Shown in pieces: positions 11,646 to 48,519 of a stretch of 64,000 nt of DNA. The notes under the pieces were generated by a model that was not told the origin of the DNA, searched no databases, and saw only the letters and a program-made list of their open reading frames with translations. The stretch lies in IMG/VR virus record IMGVR_UViG_2740892427_000001. The stretch is one strand, 5' to 3'. The stretch's first letter is position 1; every line of letters begins with the position of its first letter. Made by a program: the position numbers and the translations under genes. The DNA is from a virus. Its lineage: Duplodnaviria > Heunggongvirae > Uroviricota > Caudoviricetes.

Positions 11646-12290
11646 CTAATGAACGGTCACTCGGCCACAGAACCGGTTTTCTATCTTTTCTACAGCGTTA
11701 TCTAGCATTCTCATCACTGATCTGGCTCTTGCTTCAACTGTGCGATACCGGTTGGAAACGACGAAGGTTTGCAGATCTCCCCTTTGCGGATGCAGGTGAA
11801 TTTTTGTCAGTTCCCCGCACATCAACGCATCAATACGAGCGACATACAGACGGTCTAATGATGCTCGTTGTGACCGCAAGTAATCTCGCTCTGAGAGAGC
11901 GACCCCCGGGCGTAGGCCAGCAATGGCGTTAAAGTTTGAAATAGCAGTTTTGTGGCAAAACTTTTCGATATCGAGGGCTAACTCAATACACCGATCTTCA
12001 TTTGTATGGCCGACCAAATCCAACGTGTAGGCCATAACATCAGCAGGTGTGCGATCGATAACAAAGCCTTCAACACCACGCGTAAGTAGCTCTATATGCT
12101 TTGCTATTTCCATTTGAATCTGAAGCCGCTCATATAGAGGCATAGAATCACCTACTCGAACACCGAGGCGGCTCATCAAACTTCCGACACCAGCATCCAC
12201 GTAAGGGATTCCGTAATGTTTGTCGATATATTTAGCCAGGGTTGTTTTCCCACTGCCCTGAGCACCAGTGATCCCAATCCGGTAATCCAT
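11646..12290 (-). CDS. P-loop nucleotide kinase (putative dNMP kinase)
   Basis: Walker A GITGAQGSGKTT at N-terminus; sits in the nucleotide-metabolism cluster. Confidence 0.55.
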   Translation of the reverse strand: MDYRIGITGAQGSGKTTLAKYIDKHYGIPYVDAGVGSLMSRLGVRVGDSMPLYERLQIQMEIAKHIELLTRGVEGFVIDRTPADVMAYTLDLVGHTNEDRCIELALDIEKFCHKTAISNFNAIAGLRPGVALSERDYLRSQRASLDRLYVARIDALMCGELTKIHLHPQRGDLQTFVVSNRYRTVEARARSVMRMLDNAVEKIENRFCGRVTVH

Positions 12291-12766
12291 TACGACCTTC
12301 TGTATACGATCTGCGAAAAGCCAGGCTCTTCCTCGCTGGCTCGTTGGGTATAAGCTGTTTCAACAGGCACAAAGCCTAAGTTACGCATCATGCTTGCCGG
12401 GAAGAAGGCATCGGCGTTTGGTACATCAACGCCGATGTGGGAGAGCCAAATCTCTTCAACATGCGGCATGAATAGCGAGTAAATTTGTTCCCCGCCAATC
12501 ACCCACACAGGCTCTGGTAATCGCAACACATCATCCACACCAGCAGGGTAGAATCCATTTGGTACAAAGCCATGAGAGCGCGTCAAAACGAGGTTATGAC
12601 GCTCTGGAAGAGGGCGTTTGAGACTTTCCATCGTTTTACGCCCCATAACGACAGTGGCGTTTTTGGTGAGTCTCTTAAATAGCTTCAGATCGGTAGAACA
12701 ACGCCAGGGCAGTTCGTTCGCTATGCCGATCTCATAGTTACGGCCAACAGCAGCGATCATCTTCAT
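12290..12766 (-). CDS. folA: dihydrofolate reductase
   Basis: MIAAVGRNYEIG...LPW...VVMGRKT...RPLPERHNLVLTRS...WVIGGEQIY match DHFR throughout. Confidence 0.85.
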   Translation of the reverse strand: MKMIAAVGRNYEIGIANELPWRCSTDLKLFKRLTKNATVVMGRKTMESLKRPLPERHNLVLTRSHGFVPNGFYPAGVDDVLRLPEPVWVIGGEQIYSLFMPHVEEIWLSHIGVDVPNADAFFPASMMRNLGFVPVETAYTQRASEEEPGFSQIVYRRS

Positions 12767-13176
12767 TTGCTCACCTCATAGATGACCGGTCGATGGTGAG
12801 AGTCGGCTAAAGCGGCACGGAGTCGAGGATCGTGCACCAGCGCAGCGATAAGCAGATCGCCTTTATGCTCCGCTAATGTGCGCTTAATATGCTTCTCATA
12901 ACTGGTGCCATTCGGTACGAGATGAAGCCAGTCATAATCAACGCCAAAATCTTTCAGCCATCGTTTAGTTGGCGCTTCAAGAGTTTCAGAGCGGCTACTG
13001 ATAAGCACCACTTCAGCCCCTGAGCGAGCAAAACCACGCAACATACGGCTGGTGGGGAAAATGAGTTCATCACCGGCAATGAGCTGGCCTGCATCCGCGT
13101 CAGATACTGATTTACGATGGCTGGCATTTGCCAGCACACCTTCAATTTCGCATAAGACATACATACCTCTTGCCAT
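12763..13176 (-). CDS. hypothetical protein
   Basis: start moved to ATG 13176 (ATGGCAAGAGG) to remove a 47-nt overlap with thyA; no confident motif. Confidence 0.4.
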   Translation of the reverse strand: MARGMYVLCEIEGVLANASHRKSVSDADAGQLIAGDELIFPTSRMLRGFARSGAEVVLISSRSETLEAPTKRWLKDFGVDYDWLHLVPNGTSYEKHIKRTLAEHKGDLLIAALVHDPRLRAALADSHHRPVIYEVSK

Positions 13177-30525: not shown

Positions 30526-32865
30526 TTACTCTTCTACTGACTCGGTGGGGTTGTCTTTTGCTCTTCGGTCGTCGATTGCCTGCAAAGCCGCAATGATTTC
30601 AGCCAGTGGCTTCTCCCGATACATCTCGACGATCTGCGATTTGGTGTATTTCTTGTCACCAATTTCAACTCGCCCGCTGGCGTTCTTTGGCAGGTATCCT
30701 TCTTCCAGCATGTACTCGACGAGCGATTCGATAACGTCGAGGCCACGAGTAGGATCGAAGTAGAATTTCCAGGTGCATTTGCCATACGGTGGTGCAACTT
30801 TGTTTTTGATGCATTCTGCGCCTACGTCCTGGCCGATCTTCTCTTTACCATCCTTCATCACCGATGCACCAAGACGGATACGTACAGAAGCGTAGAACTT
30901 CGGTGAATCGCCGCCTGGTGACGTAGTAGGGTCGCCAAACATTACACCGATTTTTGTGCGAACCTGATTCAAGAAGATGATGCAGGCGTTGTATTTGCGT
31001 GCCCACAAAGCCAGAGTAGGGAAGTTCGCACTCGTCGCACGAGCCAGTGCCGTATTGTCGTTCATGTTTAGCTGATCTTTGTCTTTGGCAGTGCCTTCAG
31101 CCATCTTTTCGAACTTCTCGGCTTTGGAGTTCGGAACCATAGACGCAAGAGAGTCAGCCACGATACAGATAGGTGCTGATTCGGGGATAAGCTCTTCATC
31201 ACGAACCAATTTAAGTATTGTGCCGATCAACTCTACAGAGTCTTCGAAGGTATCTGGCTGCTTGTATACCCACTGACCGTCATCCTCATCTGCGTTCAGG
31301 CCATTGGCTACAGCCAGGCCAACGTCAAAACTGTTTTCATGATCGAGGAATACCGCCAGACCATCTTGTTTTTGAGCGGAGATCATCGCTGCTGTTGCAA
31401 GGAATGTGTTGTGGCTGATAATCCCGTTAGACCAGAAAGAGTGTGTTTCCGGCATCGCTACGTCGAACGTTGGTGCTTCACCTTCCTCAATAGCCACGAC
31501 TTCGTCGTAGAACAAGTTAGAGCCAATTACCGCTGCCAGTTGTGCAAACAGATGCTCGTTAAAACGATTCTTTCTGCCAATGAAGGAGACATAGATTTCT
31601 CGCAGTTTGTCTATTCCGACACGATCGCCGCGGCCAATAACGTGGTCTACCAGAGCGTAGTCTTCACGGGTGGTCTTGGTGAGCGACTCGTAGAGTGATT
31701 TCACTAAGCCGCTGATGTGCGGAACATAGCCTGAGTAAGTGCGGTCAAAACCAATGTCCCGTTTGGTTGCCACTGATAAACGTGCCGGAGATTCGAAACC
31801 AATCGTTGACAGAAAAAGGTCGTAATTAGAGCCACTGAATGACAGCCGGTAATATGTATTTTCATAACCCGCGACGTGTTTTTCAGAGATAGTTGACGTA
31901 ATCCCCAGATTCAGGAGCATGAGGCGAATTTGCTGTAGCAGCAGCCCACTCGCGCTCACAACCTCAATGCAGCGACCATCATTGACGTGGCATTCCAGCT
32001 CAAAGTAGCCGCGAAGGAATGCAATTTGAGCCTCGCTATTGGCGCGACGCACACTCAACGGAACCTGCTTGCCAGCATCTTTCTCATACTCCAGACCATA
32101 TTCTTTAAAAAGCAGCGAACGCACCTCTTTGCTAAACAGCACATGGTCTTCCGAGCCGTTATGTTTTCTCGTAACTGGCATCTTGTCTGATACCAGCGAA
32201 ATGAGGCGGTAGTACTCATCCTTGATGAAAGGATCTGTGTTAGAAAAATTCACTGAATTTTCAGAGGCCACGTATCCGTCAGCAATTAAATAGCCCATCA
32301 GTTTTGCGATATTGGCATCCAGGTGCTGATCGCCGAATTGATGTGTGCCAACCATTGAAGGAATCGTGTCGCCTACACTGATTTTTTCAGCATGTCGCCA
32401 GACGACATTACCTAAGTCGTCAACCACACGGATTGGGTGACGGAACGTAGCCTCGATATAACCGCCTGATGCCAGCTTAATACGCTTGAATTTGCGACGG
32501 TTGTTCCATGTCAGGTGTGAGGTCTTCTCTATCACGCCATTTTCATTGATGAGTCCAACGTTATGCTCTACATCGCGAGTAGTGCATGTCGCTTTGTACC
32601 CTTCAATCTCAAACAACTCTTTCACTGTTACCATTCCACGCTCCGTCAGCAGCATGGTGTCTGCGGTAACACATTTCCCCGCGCTTGGTGGCCCGAATAC
32701 TTCGACGATACGACCACATGGGAAGCCGCCATCGTAACGACCAGAAATAGCTTTGTTTAACGGTGGAAAGCCTGTATCAATCCAATGAGTTACTTTCTGA
32801 ATTTCGTCGTTGCTACCGATTTTCTTTTTCAGAGCAAGTGCCAGTGCGGATTTTCCTTTTGCCAT
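30526..32865 (-). CDS. recA: RecA/UvsX-like recombinase precursor containing an intein
   Basis: exteins GRIVEVFGPPSAGK / TFLATAAMISAQ...IIFLNQVRTKIGVMFGDP...KFYASVRIRLG match the RecA core; 422-aa insert in the P-loop. Confidence 0.9.
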   Translation of the reverse strand: MAKGKSALALALKKKIGSNDEIQKVTHWIDTGFPPLNKAISGRYDGGFPCGRIVEVFGPPSAGKCVTADTMLLTERGMVTVKELFEIEGYKATCTTRDVEHNVGLINENGVIEKTSHLTWNNRRKFKRIKLASGGYIEATFRHPIRVVDDLGNVVWRHAEKISVGDTIPSMVGTHQFGDQHLDANIAKLMGYLIADGYVASENSVNFSNTDPFIKDEYYRLISLVSDKMPVTRKHNGSEDHVLFSKEVRSLLFKEYGLEYEKDAGKQVPLSVRRANSEAQIAFLRGYFELECHVNDGRCIEVVSASGLLLQQIRLMLLNLGITSTISEKHVAGYENTYYRLSFSGSNYDLFLSTIGFESPARLSVATKRDIGFDRTYSGYVPHISGLVKSLYESLTKTTREDYALVDHVIGRGDRVGIDKLREIYVSFIGRKNRFNEHLFAQLAAVIGSNLFYDEVVAIEEGEAPTFDVAMPETHSFWSNGIISHNTFLATAAMISAQKQDGLAVFLDHENSFDVGLAVANGLNADEDDGQWVYKQPDTFEDSVELIGTILKLVRDEELIPESAPICIVADSLASMVPNSKAEKFEKMAEGTAKDKDQLNMNDNTALARATSANFPTLALWARKYNACIIFLNQVRTKIGVMFGDPTTSPGGDSPKFYASVRIRLGASVMKDGKEKIGQDVGAECIKNKVAPPYGKCTWKFYFDPTRGLDVIESLVEYMLEEGYLPKNASGRVEIGDKKYTKSQIVEMYREKPLAEIIAALQAIDDRRAKDNPTESVEE
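31408..32673 (-). mobile_element. intein with LAGLIDADG homing-endonuclease domain, inserted in the recA Walker A motif
   Basis: starts Cys (CVTADTMLL), TxxH block ATFRHP, LMGYLIADGYV and FLRGYFELECHV, ends ...NGIISHN followed by Thr+1. Confidence 0.8.
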
Positions 32866-32867
32866 GA

Positions 32868-33140
32868 TCAGGCTCCTTTTGTTTCGTTGATTCGTTTTAA
32901 AGCGGCGGATTCGTCGAATACAATCGCATCGTGGTTAAGGAGTCTGGATACACGAGCGAGGATTTTTACGACCTGCTCGCTGACTAATCCAAACTCGCGA
33001 TCTGTCGCTTTCATTCCGGCAGCGCCCAGAATTGACGGCAGTGCGATGACAGCGTACTCACCGTGATAAAAGACAATCTCTTTTGCCAGTTGGGTAGGGG
33101 TGGTTGTAGCGCCATTAATAATCGATTTAAGCATTAGCAA
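32868..33140 (-). CDS. hypothetical protein (90 aa)
   Basis: ORF between the FEN and recA genes. Confidence 0.45.
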   Translation of the reverse strand: MLMLKSIINGATTTPTQLAKEIVFYHGEYAVIALPSILGAAGMKATDREFGLVSEQVVKILARVSRLLNHDAIVFDESAALKRINETKGA

Positions 33141-34129
33141 TACCTTTCGAATGGAAGAACAAACACTTCAAGGTCTTCAAGGAACGAACGGAAATTCAGC
33201 TCGTAGCACAGTTGCTCGAATGCTTTCACGTCACGATTGCCTTTGATTGTTTCGATTTCGGTAGGCGGAAACTTCGTCTCAATCAGGTTCATTAGCGTGA
33301 TGTTTCTCTTGAACGCTTCGAGCATTCGACAGCCTGTTTTCTCGTTGAAGGCATTCTTCGCTAGTTTGTTGAAGGCGGTCTTATGGCGTCCTTTGTCAAC
33401 CACGATTGAGCCGTCGTTGATGCCGCGTACCATCGTTGCGACACTTCCCCATTCATGCAGCAGCTCTTTCGCACCGCCAGCACCAATGCCACCAACACCG
33501 CTAATGTTGTCCGATTTATCGCCTTGTAATGCTTTTGCTTCCAAAAATGCGCGAGGCGTGGCGAATCCTGTCAGCTCCGCAAATTGCTCAAAATTAACCT
33601 GCTTGTTTTTGGCGTCTTCACGCAGGCTTACCCAGCTTACGTTTTCACGAACTAACTGAAGCCAGTCGCTATCGCCTGTTAACAGATAGATGTGTTCAAC
33701 GGTTGGCTGCGGTGCCATGCGGGATACCAGCAGCCCGGCCAGATCATCCGCTTCTGCATCTTTTGCAATGAGTTGGGTAACTCCAAGCGCGGTCATCATT
33801 TTGAGGATGTATGGCTTCTGGATAGCAAAGCCTTCCTTCATCTTTTTCATATCAGGATCGTCGTCGCGATTTGCTTTGTAGTCCGGGTAAAAGTCGCGAC
33901 GCTTGTCACTAAATCCATCCCAAAGAATCATAGGTCGGGCATGGAGGATGGAGGCATAACGACGGACGTTCTTAACAAAGCCGAAAGCAGCCTGTACTTC
34001 CATTTCGCCGTTGTGCAATTTGTCAGATTGTTGGTGGTAATAACCCAGGCTATTGCCATCTACGAAGAGATAATTCACCGGTACATTCCTTCCAAAAAGT
34101 AAGGCGTCCGTAGAGGCCTTACTGGTCAC
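33134..34129 (-). CDS. 5'-3' exonuclease / flap endonuclease (T4 RNase H / T5 D15-like)
   Basis: N-terminal LFVDGNSLGYYHQ and downstream acidic motifs (LTGDSDWLQLV) typical of the FEN/53EXO family. Confidence 0.8.
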   Translation of the reverse strand: MTSKASTDALLFGRNVPVNYLFVDGNSLGYYHQQSDKLHNGEMEVQAAFGFVKNVRRYASILHARPMILWDGFSDKRRDFYPDYKANRDDDPDMKKMKEGFAIQKPYILKMMTALGVTQLIAKDAEADDLAGLLVSRMAPQPTVEHIYLLTGDSDWLQLVRENVSWVSLREDAKNKQVNFEQFAELTGFATPRAFLEAKALQGDKSDNISGVGGIGAGGAKELLHEWGSVATMVRGINDGSIVVDKGRHKTAFNKLAKNAFNEKTGCRMLEAFKRNITLMNLIETKFPPTEIETIKGNRDVKAFEQLCYELNFRSFLEDLEVFVLPFERYC

Positions 34130-34138
34130 GTAATGGGA

Positions 34139-35167
34139 TTACAGAGAGTCCAGCTCTCTCAGTAGGTCATCCAGACCTTCATCTTCCGTCGCAGATGCGG
34201 TTGCTACAGATGTCGCTGCGACTGCTTCAGACTCTTTGACTGATACGGCAACGGCAGCGGAACTTGCCTCTGGTTTAAATTCAGTTTCAACGGCACGGAG
34301 GATTTCTTCATCAACCAGACTGGTTGGTTCAGAAGCCGGTGTGTGCGCGGTTGCTACAGCCGTCGCTCCTTCTGTATGACCAGTGACAGAGCCAAATCCA
34401 GGTAGTGCCGCAGCCGATGTTTTCGCGGTTGAGGAAATTGCTGGTGCAGATGCTGCGGCAGTTGGTGCAGCGATGCCAATCAGACGACCCATAGTGCGAA
34501 CTGTCGACAGAAGACGAGTTTCATCAGCCTGATTTGCGTATGCGATCAGATCATGCTGGGTGTTCCAGAATTTATCTTCGATATCGCCTTTGTAGACTTT
34601 ACGCTTAGGCGAGACGTCATATTTGGTATCGCGACCAGAGCCAGTACGTTTAATCAGGAATGCGTAGCCTTCCTCTTTGCTCAGTGGATTGCCGATATCA
34701 TCAGCGATGTCTTCGGTGATTGCTTTGCAGATATCATCGAATACAGTAGACGGCAGCTCGATTAACTGGCATTTCTCAGCATCTGCGAAATCCTCACGAG
34801 CAGAAAGAATGCCGTTGACCAGGTAGCGAGGAGTGGCACGCATTTGACCGATGCGTTCTTCCATTGCTTTGTTACCCTTGTGACGAGCGCGACCTTCCAT
34901 CACCATTTCGCATAGCTGACAAGCGCGACCGTGAGTATGTTGCTCACAAATATAAGCGTTGGTTGCTTCTTTACCTTCCTCGTTCTGATACTTAACGTAG
35001 TGCATACCGAAAGTCTGGAAGAACTTACCGTTTGGGTCGTCTTTATTCGGGAAGATGCGGATATAGTTGACGCCGTCTTTTAAGCGAGTCAGATCAACGT
35101 TGTTGCCACGTTTGGCGGCAATGTCTTCACGAGTTTTGTTAAGCAAATCAAGTAATGTCTTAGACAT
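34139..35167 (-). CDS. single-stranded DNA-binding protein, T4 gp32-like
   Basis: Zn-ligand-like C..H..C..C cluster (ICEQHTHGRACQLC), Ala-rich linker, acidic C-terminal tail EDEGLDDLLRELDSL. Confidence 0.6.
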   Translation of the reverse strand: MSKTLLDLLNKTREDIAAKRGNNVDLTRLKDGVNYIRIFPNKDDPNGKFFQTFGMHYVKYQNEEGKEATNAYICEQHTHGRACQLCEMVMEGRARHKGNKAMEERIGQMRATPRYLVNGILSAREDFADAEKCQLIELPSTVFDDICKAITEDIADDIGNPLSKEEGYAFLIKRTGSGRDTKYDVSPKRKVYKGDIEDKFWNTQHDLIAYANQADETRLLSTVRTMGRLIGIAAPTAAASAPAISSTAKTSAAALPGFGSVTGHTEGATAVATAHTPASEPTSLVDEEILRAVETEFKPEASSAAVAVSVKESEAVAATSVATASATEDEGLDDLLRELDSL

Positions 35168-35284
35168 GTGTTTCTCCTTGTTGTGATTTGGCCGATGGCG
35201 CTATGCGCGTTGGGCTTTCGTTCATTCGTGGCTCTTTCGAGCTGTTAAATGATAGATCAGTACTTACTTATTATCTATCAAAAA

Positions 35285-35716
35285 TCAACGGGGAGTAATA
35301 AAGCGTTCAGAGCCTAATCGCTCTAATTCAACGATGGCCATCTTTGACGCCTGAACGATCATGTCTCGGCGATGCGAAAAGGCGGCGACAGCATGTTTGT
35401 ATATGTCTGCGATGTGCCGTGCTTCATCCAACTTCTGCCGTTTAGACAGATACTGTGGGTTTGTTTTAACCTTAGCGTCCAGTACAGACTCGTTGAACTT
35501 AATGCCGTTCATACTCAAGTTCTTACGCTCTGTGTCGTATAGCTTTGCTTCAACAGCTTCAAGGTTAAGTTTTGCCTCTGCGACATCTCGATCTGCCTGC
35601 GCTAGTTTTGACCCATACTCCATTAAAAGCCGTGGCTGTTTACGCCATACTTCCTCAAGGTTGTCGCGGTCGAACTCCAGATCGGCCATGATTTTAGAAA
35701 AAATATCAGTGTTCAC
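35285..35716 (-). CDS. hypothetical protein (143 aa); possible recombination mediator by position next to SSB/RecA
   Basis: ORF; coiled-coil-like; context only. Confidence 0.45.
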   Translation of the reverse strand: MNTDIFSKIMADLEFDRDNLEEVWRKQPRLLMEYGSKLAQADRDVAEAKLNLEAVEAKLYDTERKNLSMNGIKFNESVLDAKVKTNPQYLSKRQKLDEARHIADIYKHAVAAFSHRRDMIVQASKMAIVELERLGSERFITPR

Positions 35717-47865: not shown

Positions 47866-47952
47866 TGGCGGAGAGTAATGGAATCGAACCATCATCGCTT
47901 GCGCAATGGGACGGTTTTCAAGACCGCTTGAGCACCATGCTCCCTACTCTCC
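47866..47952 (-). tRNA. tRNA-Ser (anticodon UGA), class II with long variable arm, encoded CCA
   Basis: manual fold: acceptor GGAGAGT/ACTCTCC, anticodon loop CUUGAAA, T-loop GGTTCGATTCC. Confidence 0.7.
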
Positions 47953-48050
47953 AGCTATTGTGATGGTCGGTGCTGAACTCCGACACAGGGTTGTAGCAAG
48001 CCCCGCAAAGCGCGCACTACTGTAGTTGCGGCACATCAGCCTGTGCATTC

Positions 48051-48133
48051 ATCACAACGGTAAGATCACTACCTTTCGACCAGTCATTGTGCACATGAAC
48101 GACGATTAACCGTAATGATCTTATCGTTGTGTT
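48051..48133 (-). other. imperfect long stem-loop in tRNA spacer
   Basis: arms atcacaacggtaagatcact / aatgatcttatcgttgtg. Confidence 0.35.
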
Positions 48134-48180
48134 GTGAAGCCAGATGCTTATCTTCTGGTTGCTTCAAAGAGCTGCACTTC

Positions 48181-48271
48181 CTCACAACGGTAAGAGCACT
48201 GGTCTGACTCTATCGATTTACGGGCTTGTGGGTCAGTATCGCCGATTCGCCCAATGCTCTTACCTGTTGTG
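48181..48271 (-). other. imperfect long stem-loop immediately 3' of tRNA-Thr
   Basis: arms ctcacaacggtaagagcactgg / ccaatgctcttacctgttgtg. Confidence 0.4.
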
Positions 48272-48272
48272 T

Positions 48273-48348
48273 TGGTGCCGGTTAACGGGATCGAACCGCT
48301 GACATCCTGCTTACAAGGCAGACGCTCTACCAACTGAGCTAAACCGGC
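48273..48348 (-). tRNA. tRNA-Thr (anticodon UGU), encoded CCA
   Basis: GCCGGTTTAGCTCAGTTGGTAGAGC...CUUGUAA...GGTTCGATCCCGTTAACCGGCACCA. Confidence 0.8.
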
Positions 48349-48352
48349 AATT

Positions 48353-48439
48353 TGGTGGGGAGTGATGGAGTCGAACCACCCGAGTCGCAATGACAGTAGA
48401 TTTACAGTCTACCCCGCTGCCCCTACGGACTAACTCCCC
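48353..48439 (-). tRNA. tRNA-Tyr (anticodon GUA), long variable arm, encoded CCA
   Basis: anticodon arm GTAGACTGTAAATCTAC, T-loop GGTTCGACTCC, acceptor GGGGAGT/ACTCCCC. Confidence 0.8.
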
Positions 48440-48444
48440 TAAAT

Positions 48445-48519
48445 TGGCGATGGTGGGTGGATTCGAACCACCGACCAGTTGGTTAACAGCCAACTGCTCT
48501 ACCGCTGAGCTACACCATC
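48445..48519 (-). tRNA. tRNA-Asn (anticodon GUU), encoded CCA
   Basis: GATGGTGTAGCTCAGCGGTAGAGC...GTTGGCTGTTAACCAAC...GGTTCGAATCCACC. Confidence 0.8.

Follow-up and report, generated by a model that had tools for sequence, protein, structure and literature searches.

The stretch of DNA analysed here, called the window, comprises 64,000 nucleotides of the IMG/VR virus record IMGVR_UViG_2740892427_000001 (Caudoviricetes), and its subject is a recA-like gene interrupted within its ATP-binding P-loop by a predicted intein of 422 residues. The DNA is that of an SSU5-like phage-plasmid from Enterobacteriaceae and is colinear with the E. coli plasmid pAVS0223-B at 97-99.5% identity and also with Escherichia phages Cyrano and PhiR41_1. 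The recA-like gene lies on the minus strand at 30526..32865, where translation gives a single open reading frame (ORF) of 779 codons plus stop with a match to Pfam RecA, and a coding sequence (CDS) of the same length in phage Cyrano is annotated 'RecA'; in the RefSeq plasmid pAVS0223-B the precursor CDS is named 'LAGLIDADG family homing endonuclease'. The Shine-Dalgarno sequence AGGAG (32873..32877, minus strand) stands 8 nt 5' of the precursor ATG, and the upstream ORF ends with TGA immediately 5' of that ATG, an operon arrangement.

The RecA-like host protein and its insert

The 779-residue precursor consists of three parts, all on the minus strand: an N-extein of 64 residues (32674..32865), which ends in the Walker A sequence GPPSAGK and aligns to E. 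coli RecA as far as K72; the intein of 422 residues (31408..32673); and a C-extein of 293 residues plus stop (30526..31407), which begins with Thr+1 (TFLATAAM...) and, by translation, Pfam and alignment to RecA, contains the Walker B motif as well as loops L1 and L2. The intein (CVTADT...IISHN, Cys1 to His421-Asn422) occupies precursor residues 65-486, between GPPSAGK and TFLATAAM; according to PF14890, PF14528, NCBIfam models, AlphaFold2 (AF2) and Foldseek, it combines a splicing domain of the HINT type with an endonuclease domain of the LAGLIDADG type. A previous sequence-only reading of this DNA had reported a 422-codon insert at 31408-32673, and our translation reproduced its coordinates and length exactly. 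The same reading placed the insertion between the Lys and the Thr of the P-loop (GPPSAGK/T, the slash marking the junction here and below), which agrees with natural empty alleles that read GK/TF at this point.

The joined exteins form a contiguous 357-residue protein of the RecA type, matching the Pfam RecA model in one stretch (residues 27-281, 2e-42, 145.8 bits against a cut-off of 27). Over the junction (GRIVEVFGPPSAGKTFLATA) they align to E. coli RecA contiguously and without a gap, as had been supposed from the sequence. The joined product has the Walker A sequence GPPSAGKT, its segment CIVADSLAS aligns to VIVVDSVAA (Walker B Asp), and its L2 loop, NQVRTKIGVMFGDPTTSPGG, is conserved relative to RecA. 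The sequence-only reading had spoken of a RecA/UvsX-type core, and only the first part of that description stands: among PDB chains the joined exteins reach RecA at 6e-35, as against 2e-9 (9gbg) and 1e-5 (3io5) for UvsX, which is ruled out as the host family. The NCBIfam equivalog model for RecA, TIGR02012, is not reached (153.7 bits against a cut-off of 325.3) and, because the score lies below this equivalog cut-off, the host protein is best named RecA-like; judged by its sequence, it belongs to a divergent phage/plasmid lineage and is no equivalog of cellular RecA.

All the motifs named in the earlier reading are present, namely Cys1, the TxxH block, two LAGLIDADG motifs, the terminal His-Asn and Thr+1, and each of them is encoded on the minus strand. 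Block A, CVTADTMLLTERG (32635..32673), with the Cys1 nucleophile, lies in the TIGR01445 match to intein residues 1-83. Block B, GGYIEATFRHPIRV (32425..32466), provides TxxH as T76 to H79 (ATFRHP; T76-F-R-H79), in a form, 'AT.(N/R)HP.RV', that is kept in relatives. The first LAGLIDADG motif, LMGYLIADGYV (32269..32301; intein residues 125-135, acidic D132), aligns to LGYLIADGTL of the TliVMA intein, and the second, FLRGYFELECHV (31984..32019; intein residues 219-230, acidic E227), to FINAYIVCDGYY of the same protein; in this alignment D132 and E227 fall where the two motifs have their catalytic acidic residues. Blocks F and G, PTFDVAMPETHSFWSNGIISHN (31408..31473), end in His421-Asn422 and carry the TIGR01443 match (residues 402-422), and in the alignment of relatives this stretch is the most conserved part of the intein family.

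Profile searches of the insert against Hint and LAGLIDADG models likewise bore out the prediction, since both were matched above cut-off in Pfam and NCBIfam. The whole protein matched Pfam RecA (3e-36), LAGLIDADG_3 (2e-17) and Intein_splicing (2e-11), each match exceeding its curated cut-off, and the insert alone matched LAGLIDADG_3 (PF14528; 4e-18, 65.8 bits against a cut-off of 22.5) and, over residues 9-422, Intein_splicing (PF14890; 4e-12, 46.6 bits against 35.8). The NCBIfam models intein_Nterm (TIGR01445; 35.3 bits, cut-off 24.5) and intein_Cterm (TIGR01443; 16.9 bits, cut-off 15.6) were reached as well. AF2, given 11 sequences, modelled the insert with a mean predicted local distance difference test score of 82 and a predicted template modelling score of 0.86. 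Its best Foldseek match was the TliVMA intein (7qss, E 1.8e-20, template modelling (TM) score 0.70), followed by PI-PfuI, PI-PkoII and PI-SceI, all endonuclease-bearing inteins, and lower down by mini-inteins, including the splicing domains of Pyrococcus horikoshii (Pho) RadA and Mycobacterium tuberculosis (Mtu) RecA, and by the free LAGLIDADG enzyme I-DmoI. The HINT fold of the model matches solved inteins, mini-inteins among them, over ~110-125 columns, and its pseudo-dimeric alpha-beta-beta-alpha-beta-beta-alpha fold matches PI-PfuI, PI-PkoII, PI-SceI and I-DmoI. By its motifs, profile matches and modelled structure, the insert is a canonical intein of class 1 whose LAGLIDADG homing endonuclease has two motifs, placed between the Lys and the Thr of Walker A.

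Filled and empty alleles

Comparison with intein-free alleles, as suggested in the sequence-only reading, found the same gene without the insert in Escherichia phage CMS-2020a, interrupted in the window at the same nucleotide junction. The CMS-2020a gene has 357 codons, the junction GK/TF (GGTCCTCCAAGTGCAGGGAAA/ACGTTCCTTGCAACAGC) and 15 differences over 1074 nt (98.5% identical), and it encodes the same extein protein. Five of these 15 differences from the window stand at -19, -16, -10, -7 and +2 relative to the site of insertion, each of them synonymous. Salmonella phage SSU5 also has an intein-free form, a 'putative RecA-like recombinase' of 358 residues. Because the Pfam and NCBIfam matches exceed their cut-offs and an intein-free allele exists with the same-nucleotide junction, the observation is beyond chance.

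We compared 84 alleles from phage records, IMG/VR and one Kluyvera plasmid, of which 21 were filled and 63 empty. Every one of the 21 inserts is exactly 1266 nt long and free of stop codons and frameshifts, and together they encode 14 distinct intein protein variants (0 stop codons). When the exteins were clustered at >=95% identity, three clusters held both kinds of allele (9 filled and 20 empty, 11 and 14, and 1 and 14, respectively).

The intein looks recently mobile when its divergence is set against that of its surroundings. Between the window and Klebsiella phage vB_KpnS_p4727 DNA identity is 96.9% in the intein, against 78.6% in the N-extein and 82.6% in the C-extein, with sharp steps at both junctions. 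Over 210 pairs of filled alleles the identity of the intein was always >=96.5%, that of the exteins falling as low as 82%, and the synonymous divergence (dS) of the intein was 0.09 compared with 1.2-2.1 for the exteins. Moreover, the nucleotides that directly adjoin the intein are shared by filled alleles in every background. The upstream flank GCGGGGAAA (Ala-Gly-Lys codons; 32674..32682, minus strand) occurs in 21/21 filled and 4/63 empty alleles (Fisher 4e-16), and the downstream flank ACATTCCT (Thr-Phe-Leu codons; 31400..31407, minus strand) in 21/21 filled and 0/63 empty alleles (Fisher 3e-20); each is a probable co-conversion tract. The arrangement of GCGGGGAAA, intein and ACATTCCT is thus common to all filled alleles, and both flanks together occur in none of the 63 empty ones. 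In two filled alleles with an E. coli background (L066 and L069) the nearest codons are the only ones that differ from the empty form (GCA to GCG and ACG to ACA), so the shared tract may be only a few nucleotides long. Selection at the protein level was ruled out as the cause of the shared flanks, all differences being synonymous. This is the expected pattern of gene conversion initiated by an endonuclease with short co-conversion tracts, as far as allele comparison can tell.

Both the intein and the exteins are, by their substitution patterns, under purifying selection. The ratio of nonsynonymous to synonymous substitution rates (dN/dS) is ~0.16 for the intein, with a nonsynonymous deficit at p = 6e-8, and 0.19-0.21 for its endonuclease part, with a deficit at p = 9e-5. 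Polymorphism of the exteins in the two large intein-bearing clusters gave ratios of synonymous to nonsynonymous codons of 34:1 and 59:8. The recombinase is therefore still selected in filled alleles, from which we infer that splicing restores it.

Two further alleles in this family are of structural interest. In the E. coli plasmid p2 (L088; CP059946.1) an IS1 element of ~770 bp, with terminal repeats GGTGATGTTGCCAACTTACTGAT and an InsAB-like ORF, lies within the intein CDS at the point equivalent to window positions 32243-32250, and the recA-like gene of that plasmid is broken. In IMGVR_UViG_2724678972_000008 (L084; ~2480-2520) a Klebsiella-type recA allele is without its entire N-extein. The breakpoint there falls inside the codons of the P-loop (...GGCGAAGCCGGCT/GCTGGTAAA/ACCTTC), within a few bases of where the intein inserts, and the sequence 5' of it resembles the Walker A region of a different gene (...LTFATGEAGC...); this allele could be a homing-site deletion or a microhomology fusion of two P-loop genes.

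A probable homing intein and its alternatives

We put at roughly 85% the probability that the window carries a selfish, splicing-competent intein, still homing or recently so, in a RecA-like recombinase of a phage-plasmid. In the mechanism that we propose, translation would yield a precursor of ~87 kDa whose ATP site is split and which would hence be inactive. The Lys-Thr pair of Walker A is needed for ATP binding and hydrolysis in P-loop nucleoside triphosphatases (NTPases), and it is reasonable to conclude from Walker A chemistry, as the earlier reading did, that the ATPase of the precursor is inactive before splicing. The HINT domain would then excise itself by means of Cys1, the Thr-His of block B, the terminal His-Asn and the Thr+1 nucleophile, and ligation of the exteins would give a 357-residue RecA-like protein with GPPSAGKT intact, as the residues present and the selection on the exteins suggest. 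The freed 422-residue intein would cut intein-free recA alleles at a specific site whenever related phage-plasmids share a cell, and repair off the filled allele would carry the intein and ~9 nt of either flank over to the empty one, in keeping with the population patterns described above. The element would accordingly be mainly a selfish passenger, one that is probably now spreading among phage-plasmids of Escherichia, Klebsiella, Enterobacter and their relatives.

Several points weigh against this reading. The second LAGLIDADG motif departs from the consensus, having ELEC where DADG is usual, so that Glu replaces the expected Asp and Cys replaces Gly. The upstream flank GCGGGGAAA is also found in four empty alleles (L009, L019, L020 and L064), so that it may in part be natural variation. 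Ordinary homologous recombination that moves an intein-bearing segment could give the same tracts and the same contrast in dS. The IMG/VR sample is non-random, and its allele frequencies are not estimates for the population. Finally, splicing and cleavage are both activities predicted from sequence.

The first and third of these points meet in the possibility that the intein splices and has a dead or dying endonuclease, having spread only through vertical descent and through ordinary homologous recombination of phage-plasmids that share a cell. Phage-plasmids do carry a recombination module of their own, which favours mosaicism, and distant relatives at the same site (P0007, P0011 and P0013) are without the first motif or most of the endonuclease, indicating that the family passes through the decay phase of the homing cycle. 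We nevertheless regard this explanation as unlikely. The significant nonsynonymous deficit in the endonuclease part and the retention of all 1266 nt, with neither stop nor frameshift, in 21/21 alleles argue for an enzyme that is maintained; both acidic residues are there, and the unusual second motif is itself retained, as ELEC or ELES, in full-length relatives that are 40-45% identical. Very short conversion tracts, down to single codons in L066 and L069, are moreover more typical of double-strand-break repair than of general recombination.

A different view, raised in the earlier reading as recombination potentially conditional on splicing, would be that the element now serves its host as a post-translational regulator. 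It would be a conditional-splicing switch whose precursor accumulates and splices solely upon a signal such as single-stranded DNA (ssDNA), redox state or temperature, like that of Pyrococcus horikoshii RadA, so that recombination would be turned on only at need. In P-loop NTPases, a split Walker A ensures an inactive precursor. The Pho and Thermococcus sibiricus (Tsi) RadA inteins occupy the same motif of a homologous recombinase, and their splicing depends on temperature and ssDNA (PMC5790916); the clustering of inteins in P-loops has been argued to reflect function (PMC4760082). The Cys at intein position 30 is kept in most full-length relatives and, speculatively, a redox trap with Cys1 is conceivable. 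By analogy, the intein might gate the recombination module of the phage-plasmid (RecA-like protein, UvsY-like mediator, gp32-like single-stranded DNA-binding protein (SSB) and exonuclease) on ssDNA or oxidative stress, an idea to which we assign a low probability. About half of the near-identical phage-plasmids are without the intein, which makes it unnecessary for the life cycle of the element; recent horizontal spread with an intact, selected endonuclease is the pattern of a selfish element; and co-opted regulatory inteins, that of Pho RadA among them, are mini-inteins from which the endonuclease has been lost (PMC5790916). The population data fit, so far as sequences speak to it, a selfish homing element that simply splices, and a switch seems doubtful. 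If it were real, such gating would give the archaeal RadA switch a mesophilic counterpart, resident in E. coli, in an intein that retains an active homing endonuclease.

That there is no intein at all, and that the locus is instead a recA pseudogene broken by a free-standing LAGLIDADG endonuclease gene or a recombinase with a non-splicing insertion domain, is suggested by the name 'LAGLIDADG family homing endonuclease' that most E. coli RefSeq records give to the whole 779-residue protein, and is highly improbable given that the insert is in frame and has no internal start or stop signals, that Cys directly follows Lys and His-Asn directly precedes Thr, that HINT matches flank the endonuclease domain on both sides in a fold like that of solved inteins, that the exteins of filled alleles are under strong purifying selection, and that other RefSeq records read 'intein-containing recombinase RecA' or 'hint domain-containing protein'. 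As to a homing-endonuclease gene in place of an intein-bearing recombinase, it is effectively refuted by the HINT profiles, the empty allele, the fold and the selection on the exteins.

Distribution, relatives and significance

The intein DNA is present at >=90% identity in 248 PLSDB plasmids from 8 genera, mostly Escherichia (123), Klebsiella (71) and Enterobacter (41), and also Citrobacter, Shigella, Cronobacter, Kluyvera and Salmonella. This recA was found in 250/5426 complete E. coli genomes and was invariably plasmid-borne; 114 of those 250 genomes cover at least 80% of the intein-containing query, that is, ~2% of complete E. coli (114/5426). The names given to the 779-residue protein in RefSeq and GenBank vary among 'LAGLIDADG family homing endonuclease' (most E. 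coli and Klebsiella records), 'hint domain-containing protein', 'recombinase RecA' and 'hypothetical protein', and Enterobacter plasmid records use 'intein-containing recombinase RecA'; one example record of the gene is WP_001051807.1 in NZ_CP124417.1 (4284-6623). Our literature searches found no paper on this SSU5-type phage-plasmid RecA intein; the matches for intein with phage-plasmid or pHCM2 were irrelevant, mostly toxin-intein antimicrobials, and a search for statements that E. coli lacks inteins found none.

The size of the family became visible in an exhaustive protein search of 1.84 billion cluster representatives (50% identity clusters), which returned 268 proteins at E <= 1e-30; a word-index homologue search with the intein had given 13 matches. 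Among the best 148 of these 268 there were 93 RecA homologues, at least 73 of them with the junction G.{4}GK/C...HN/T or S, and the median intein length was 422 residues. The 73 RecA relatives with this junction have Cys1 in 71 cases, and their +1 residue is Thr in 67 and Ser in 6. A contig scan for exact peptide patterns in one genome per species, a design unsuited to prevalence, found two loci with the intein, one on a Kluyvera plasmid and one in an Anaerolineae metagenome-assembled genome (MAG).

The Lys-Thr position of the P-loop is a 'classic' intein insertion site (PMC5050341); inteins cluster in P-loops, with 56 bacterial RecA inteins on record (Novikova et al., PMC4760082), and archaeal RadA has a P-loop intein with conditional splicing (PMC5790916). 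The nearest counterparts of the window intein are other P-loop inteins of bacterial and phage RecA proteins (P0007, P0011, P0014-P0161, L086 and phage fHSPT3), which share host family, insertion point and architecture at 27-48% identity. Their hosts are mostly canonical bacterial RecAs or RecA-like proteins of Herelleviridae, whereas the window copy sits in a divergent gene of the SSU5 type of phage-plasmid; its lineage is near-clonal (>=96.5% identity) and separate from the others, and in some of those relatives the endonuclease domain is degenerate or absent. In the Anaerolineae MAG (L086; DAOTTO010000406.1, 2219-5206) a chromosomal RecA of 996 residues has two inteins: the first, which shares 45% identity with that of the window, is full-length, of the LAGLIDADG type and inserted at the same point of the P-loop, and the second is a mini-intein in the L2 loop (KIGVMFG/C...VVHN/SPETT). 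Bacillus phage fHSPT3 of the Herelleviridae (L089; PP626411.1, 1288-3765) encodes an 825-residue 'protein RecA' with an unannotated intein at the equivalent site (GKPGGGK/C...NHN/STLAF), 33% identical to the window intein.

More distant systems resemble the window intein in part. The RadA inteins of P. horikoshii and T. sibiricus also lie in the P-loop of a recombinase of the RecA superfamily (PMC5790916), and the RadA HINT domain superposes on the window model (4e2t, E ~1e-4); however, these are mini-inteins of archaeal hyperthermophiles that lack an endonuclease and whose splicing was shown to depend on temperature and ssDNA, whereas the window intein keeps its endonuclease and is known from sequence. 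The M. tuberculosis RecA intein (PI-MtuI; NF007072) likewise pairs a RecA host with a LAGLIDADG-type endonuclease, and the intein part of NF007072 gives a weak profile match to the window intein (2.7e-5). Its site is different, well downstream of the P-loop, as contiguous extein residues 20-269 align to model positions 32-253, and its host gene is on an actinobacterial chromosome; the window protein scores 99.9 bits against a cut-off of 1024. The TerL1-a inteins of mycobacteriophage terminases differ in host protein (terminase large subunit), in phage group and in bacterial phylum. The solved archaeal and yeast inteins TliVMA (7qss), PI-PfuI (1dq3), PI-PkoII (2cw7) and PI-SceI (1vde) share the two-domain fold (Foldseek E 1.8e-20 to 1e-8, TM up to 0.70) at only 10-21% sequence identity, and their hosts are V-ATPase, ribonucleotide reductase and DNA polymerase. 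DNA-helicase inteins of Twort-like phages and other Herelleviridae are full-length and 31-34% identical over all 422 residues, and some are named 'intein-containing DNA helicase precursor', but their host is a helicase and not RecA, and the phages infect Gram-positives. The element is thus an ordinary, already widespread mobile intein of a well-populated and well-understood kind, in part already recognised by automated annotation, and no new kind of system.

In the window the recA-like gene belongs to a recombination module whose four other members lie upstream of it, at 32868..35716 on the minus strand. They are a small ORF for a hypothetical protein, a 5'-3' exonuclease, a gp32-like SSB and a UvsY-like mediator, their names being taken from Cyrano and from the RefSeq record of pAVS0223-B. 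The genes nrdA, nrdB and dnaE and those for a DnaB-like helicase, thymidylate synthase and ligase are classic intein hosts; here they are of ordinary length by annotation, and no search with Hint models was made on them. Next to the thymidylate synthase gene is a phage-type dihydrofolate reductase gene at ~12290-12770 (minus strand), placed by colinearity with pAVS0223-B 95631-96107, for which the RefSeq name in that near-identical plasmid is 'trimethoprim-resistant dihydrofolate reductase DfrA51', the resistance being putative. Two lipoprotein-like ORFs at 23806-24309 and 56598-57275 (both plus strand; 167 and 225 residues, with signal peptides ending in Cys) run on the strand opposite to their neighbours and lie in the sole stretches of the window that do not align to pAVS0223-B; the second fills the slot held in that plasmid by a gene with a LEM-3-like GIY-YIG domain, and both sites have the look of slots for variable cargo. 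At 47866-48519 (minus strand) four tRNA genes (Ser-TGA, Thr-TGT, Tyr-GTA and Asn-GTT) stand together, a cluster that is annotated likewise in pAVS0223-B.

The value of the finding is practical rather than conceptual, as it offers a convenient natural system in E. coli and a correction of annotation. Most RefSeq names for the precursor hide the recombinase gene in comparisons of phage-plasmids, which is a systematic annotation problem. That the intein is nearly identical in diverged phage-plasmids from several genera marks recent genetic exchange between them. Plasmid-prophages of E. coli, Klebsiella and Enterobacter here provide a naturally occurring, full-length intein that has a homing endonuclease and is, to judge by its sequence, apparently active. 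As near-isogenic filled and empty alleles exist in nature, the most tractable bacterial host could serve for work on homing, on co-conversion and on any conditional splicing.

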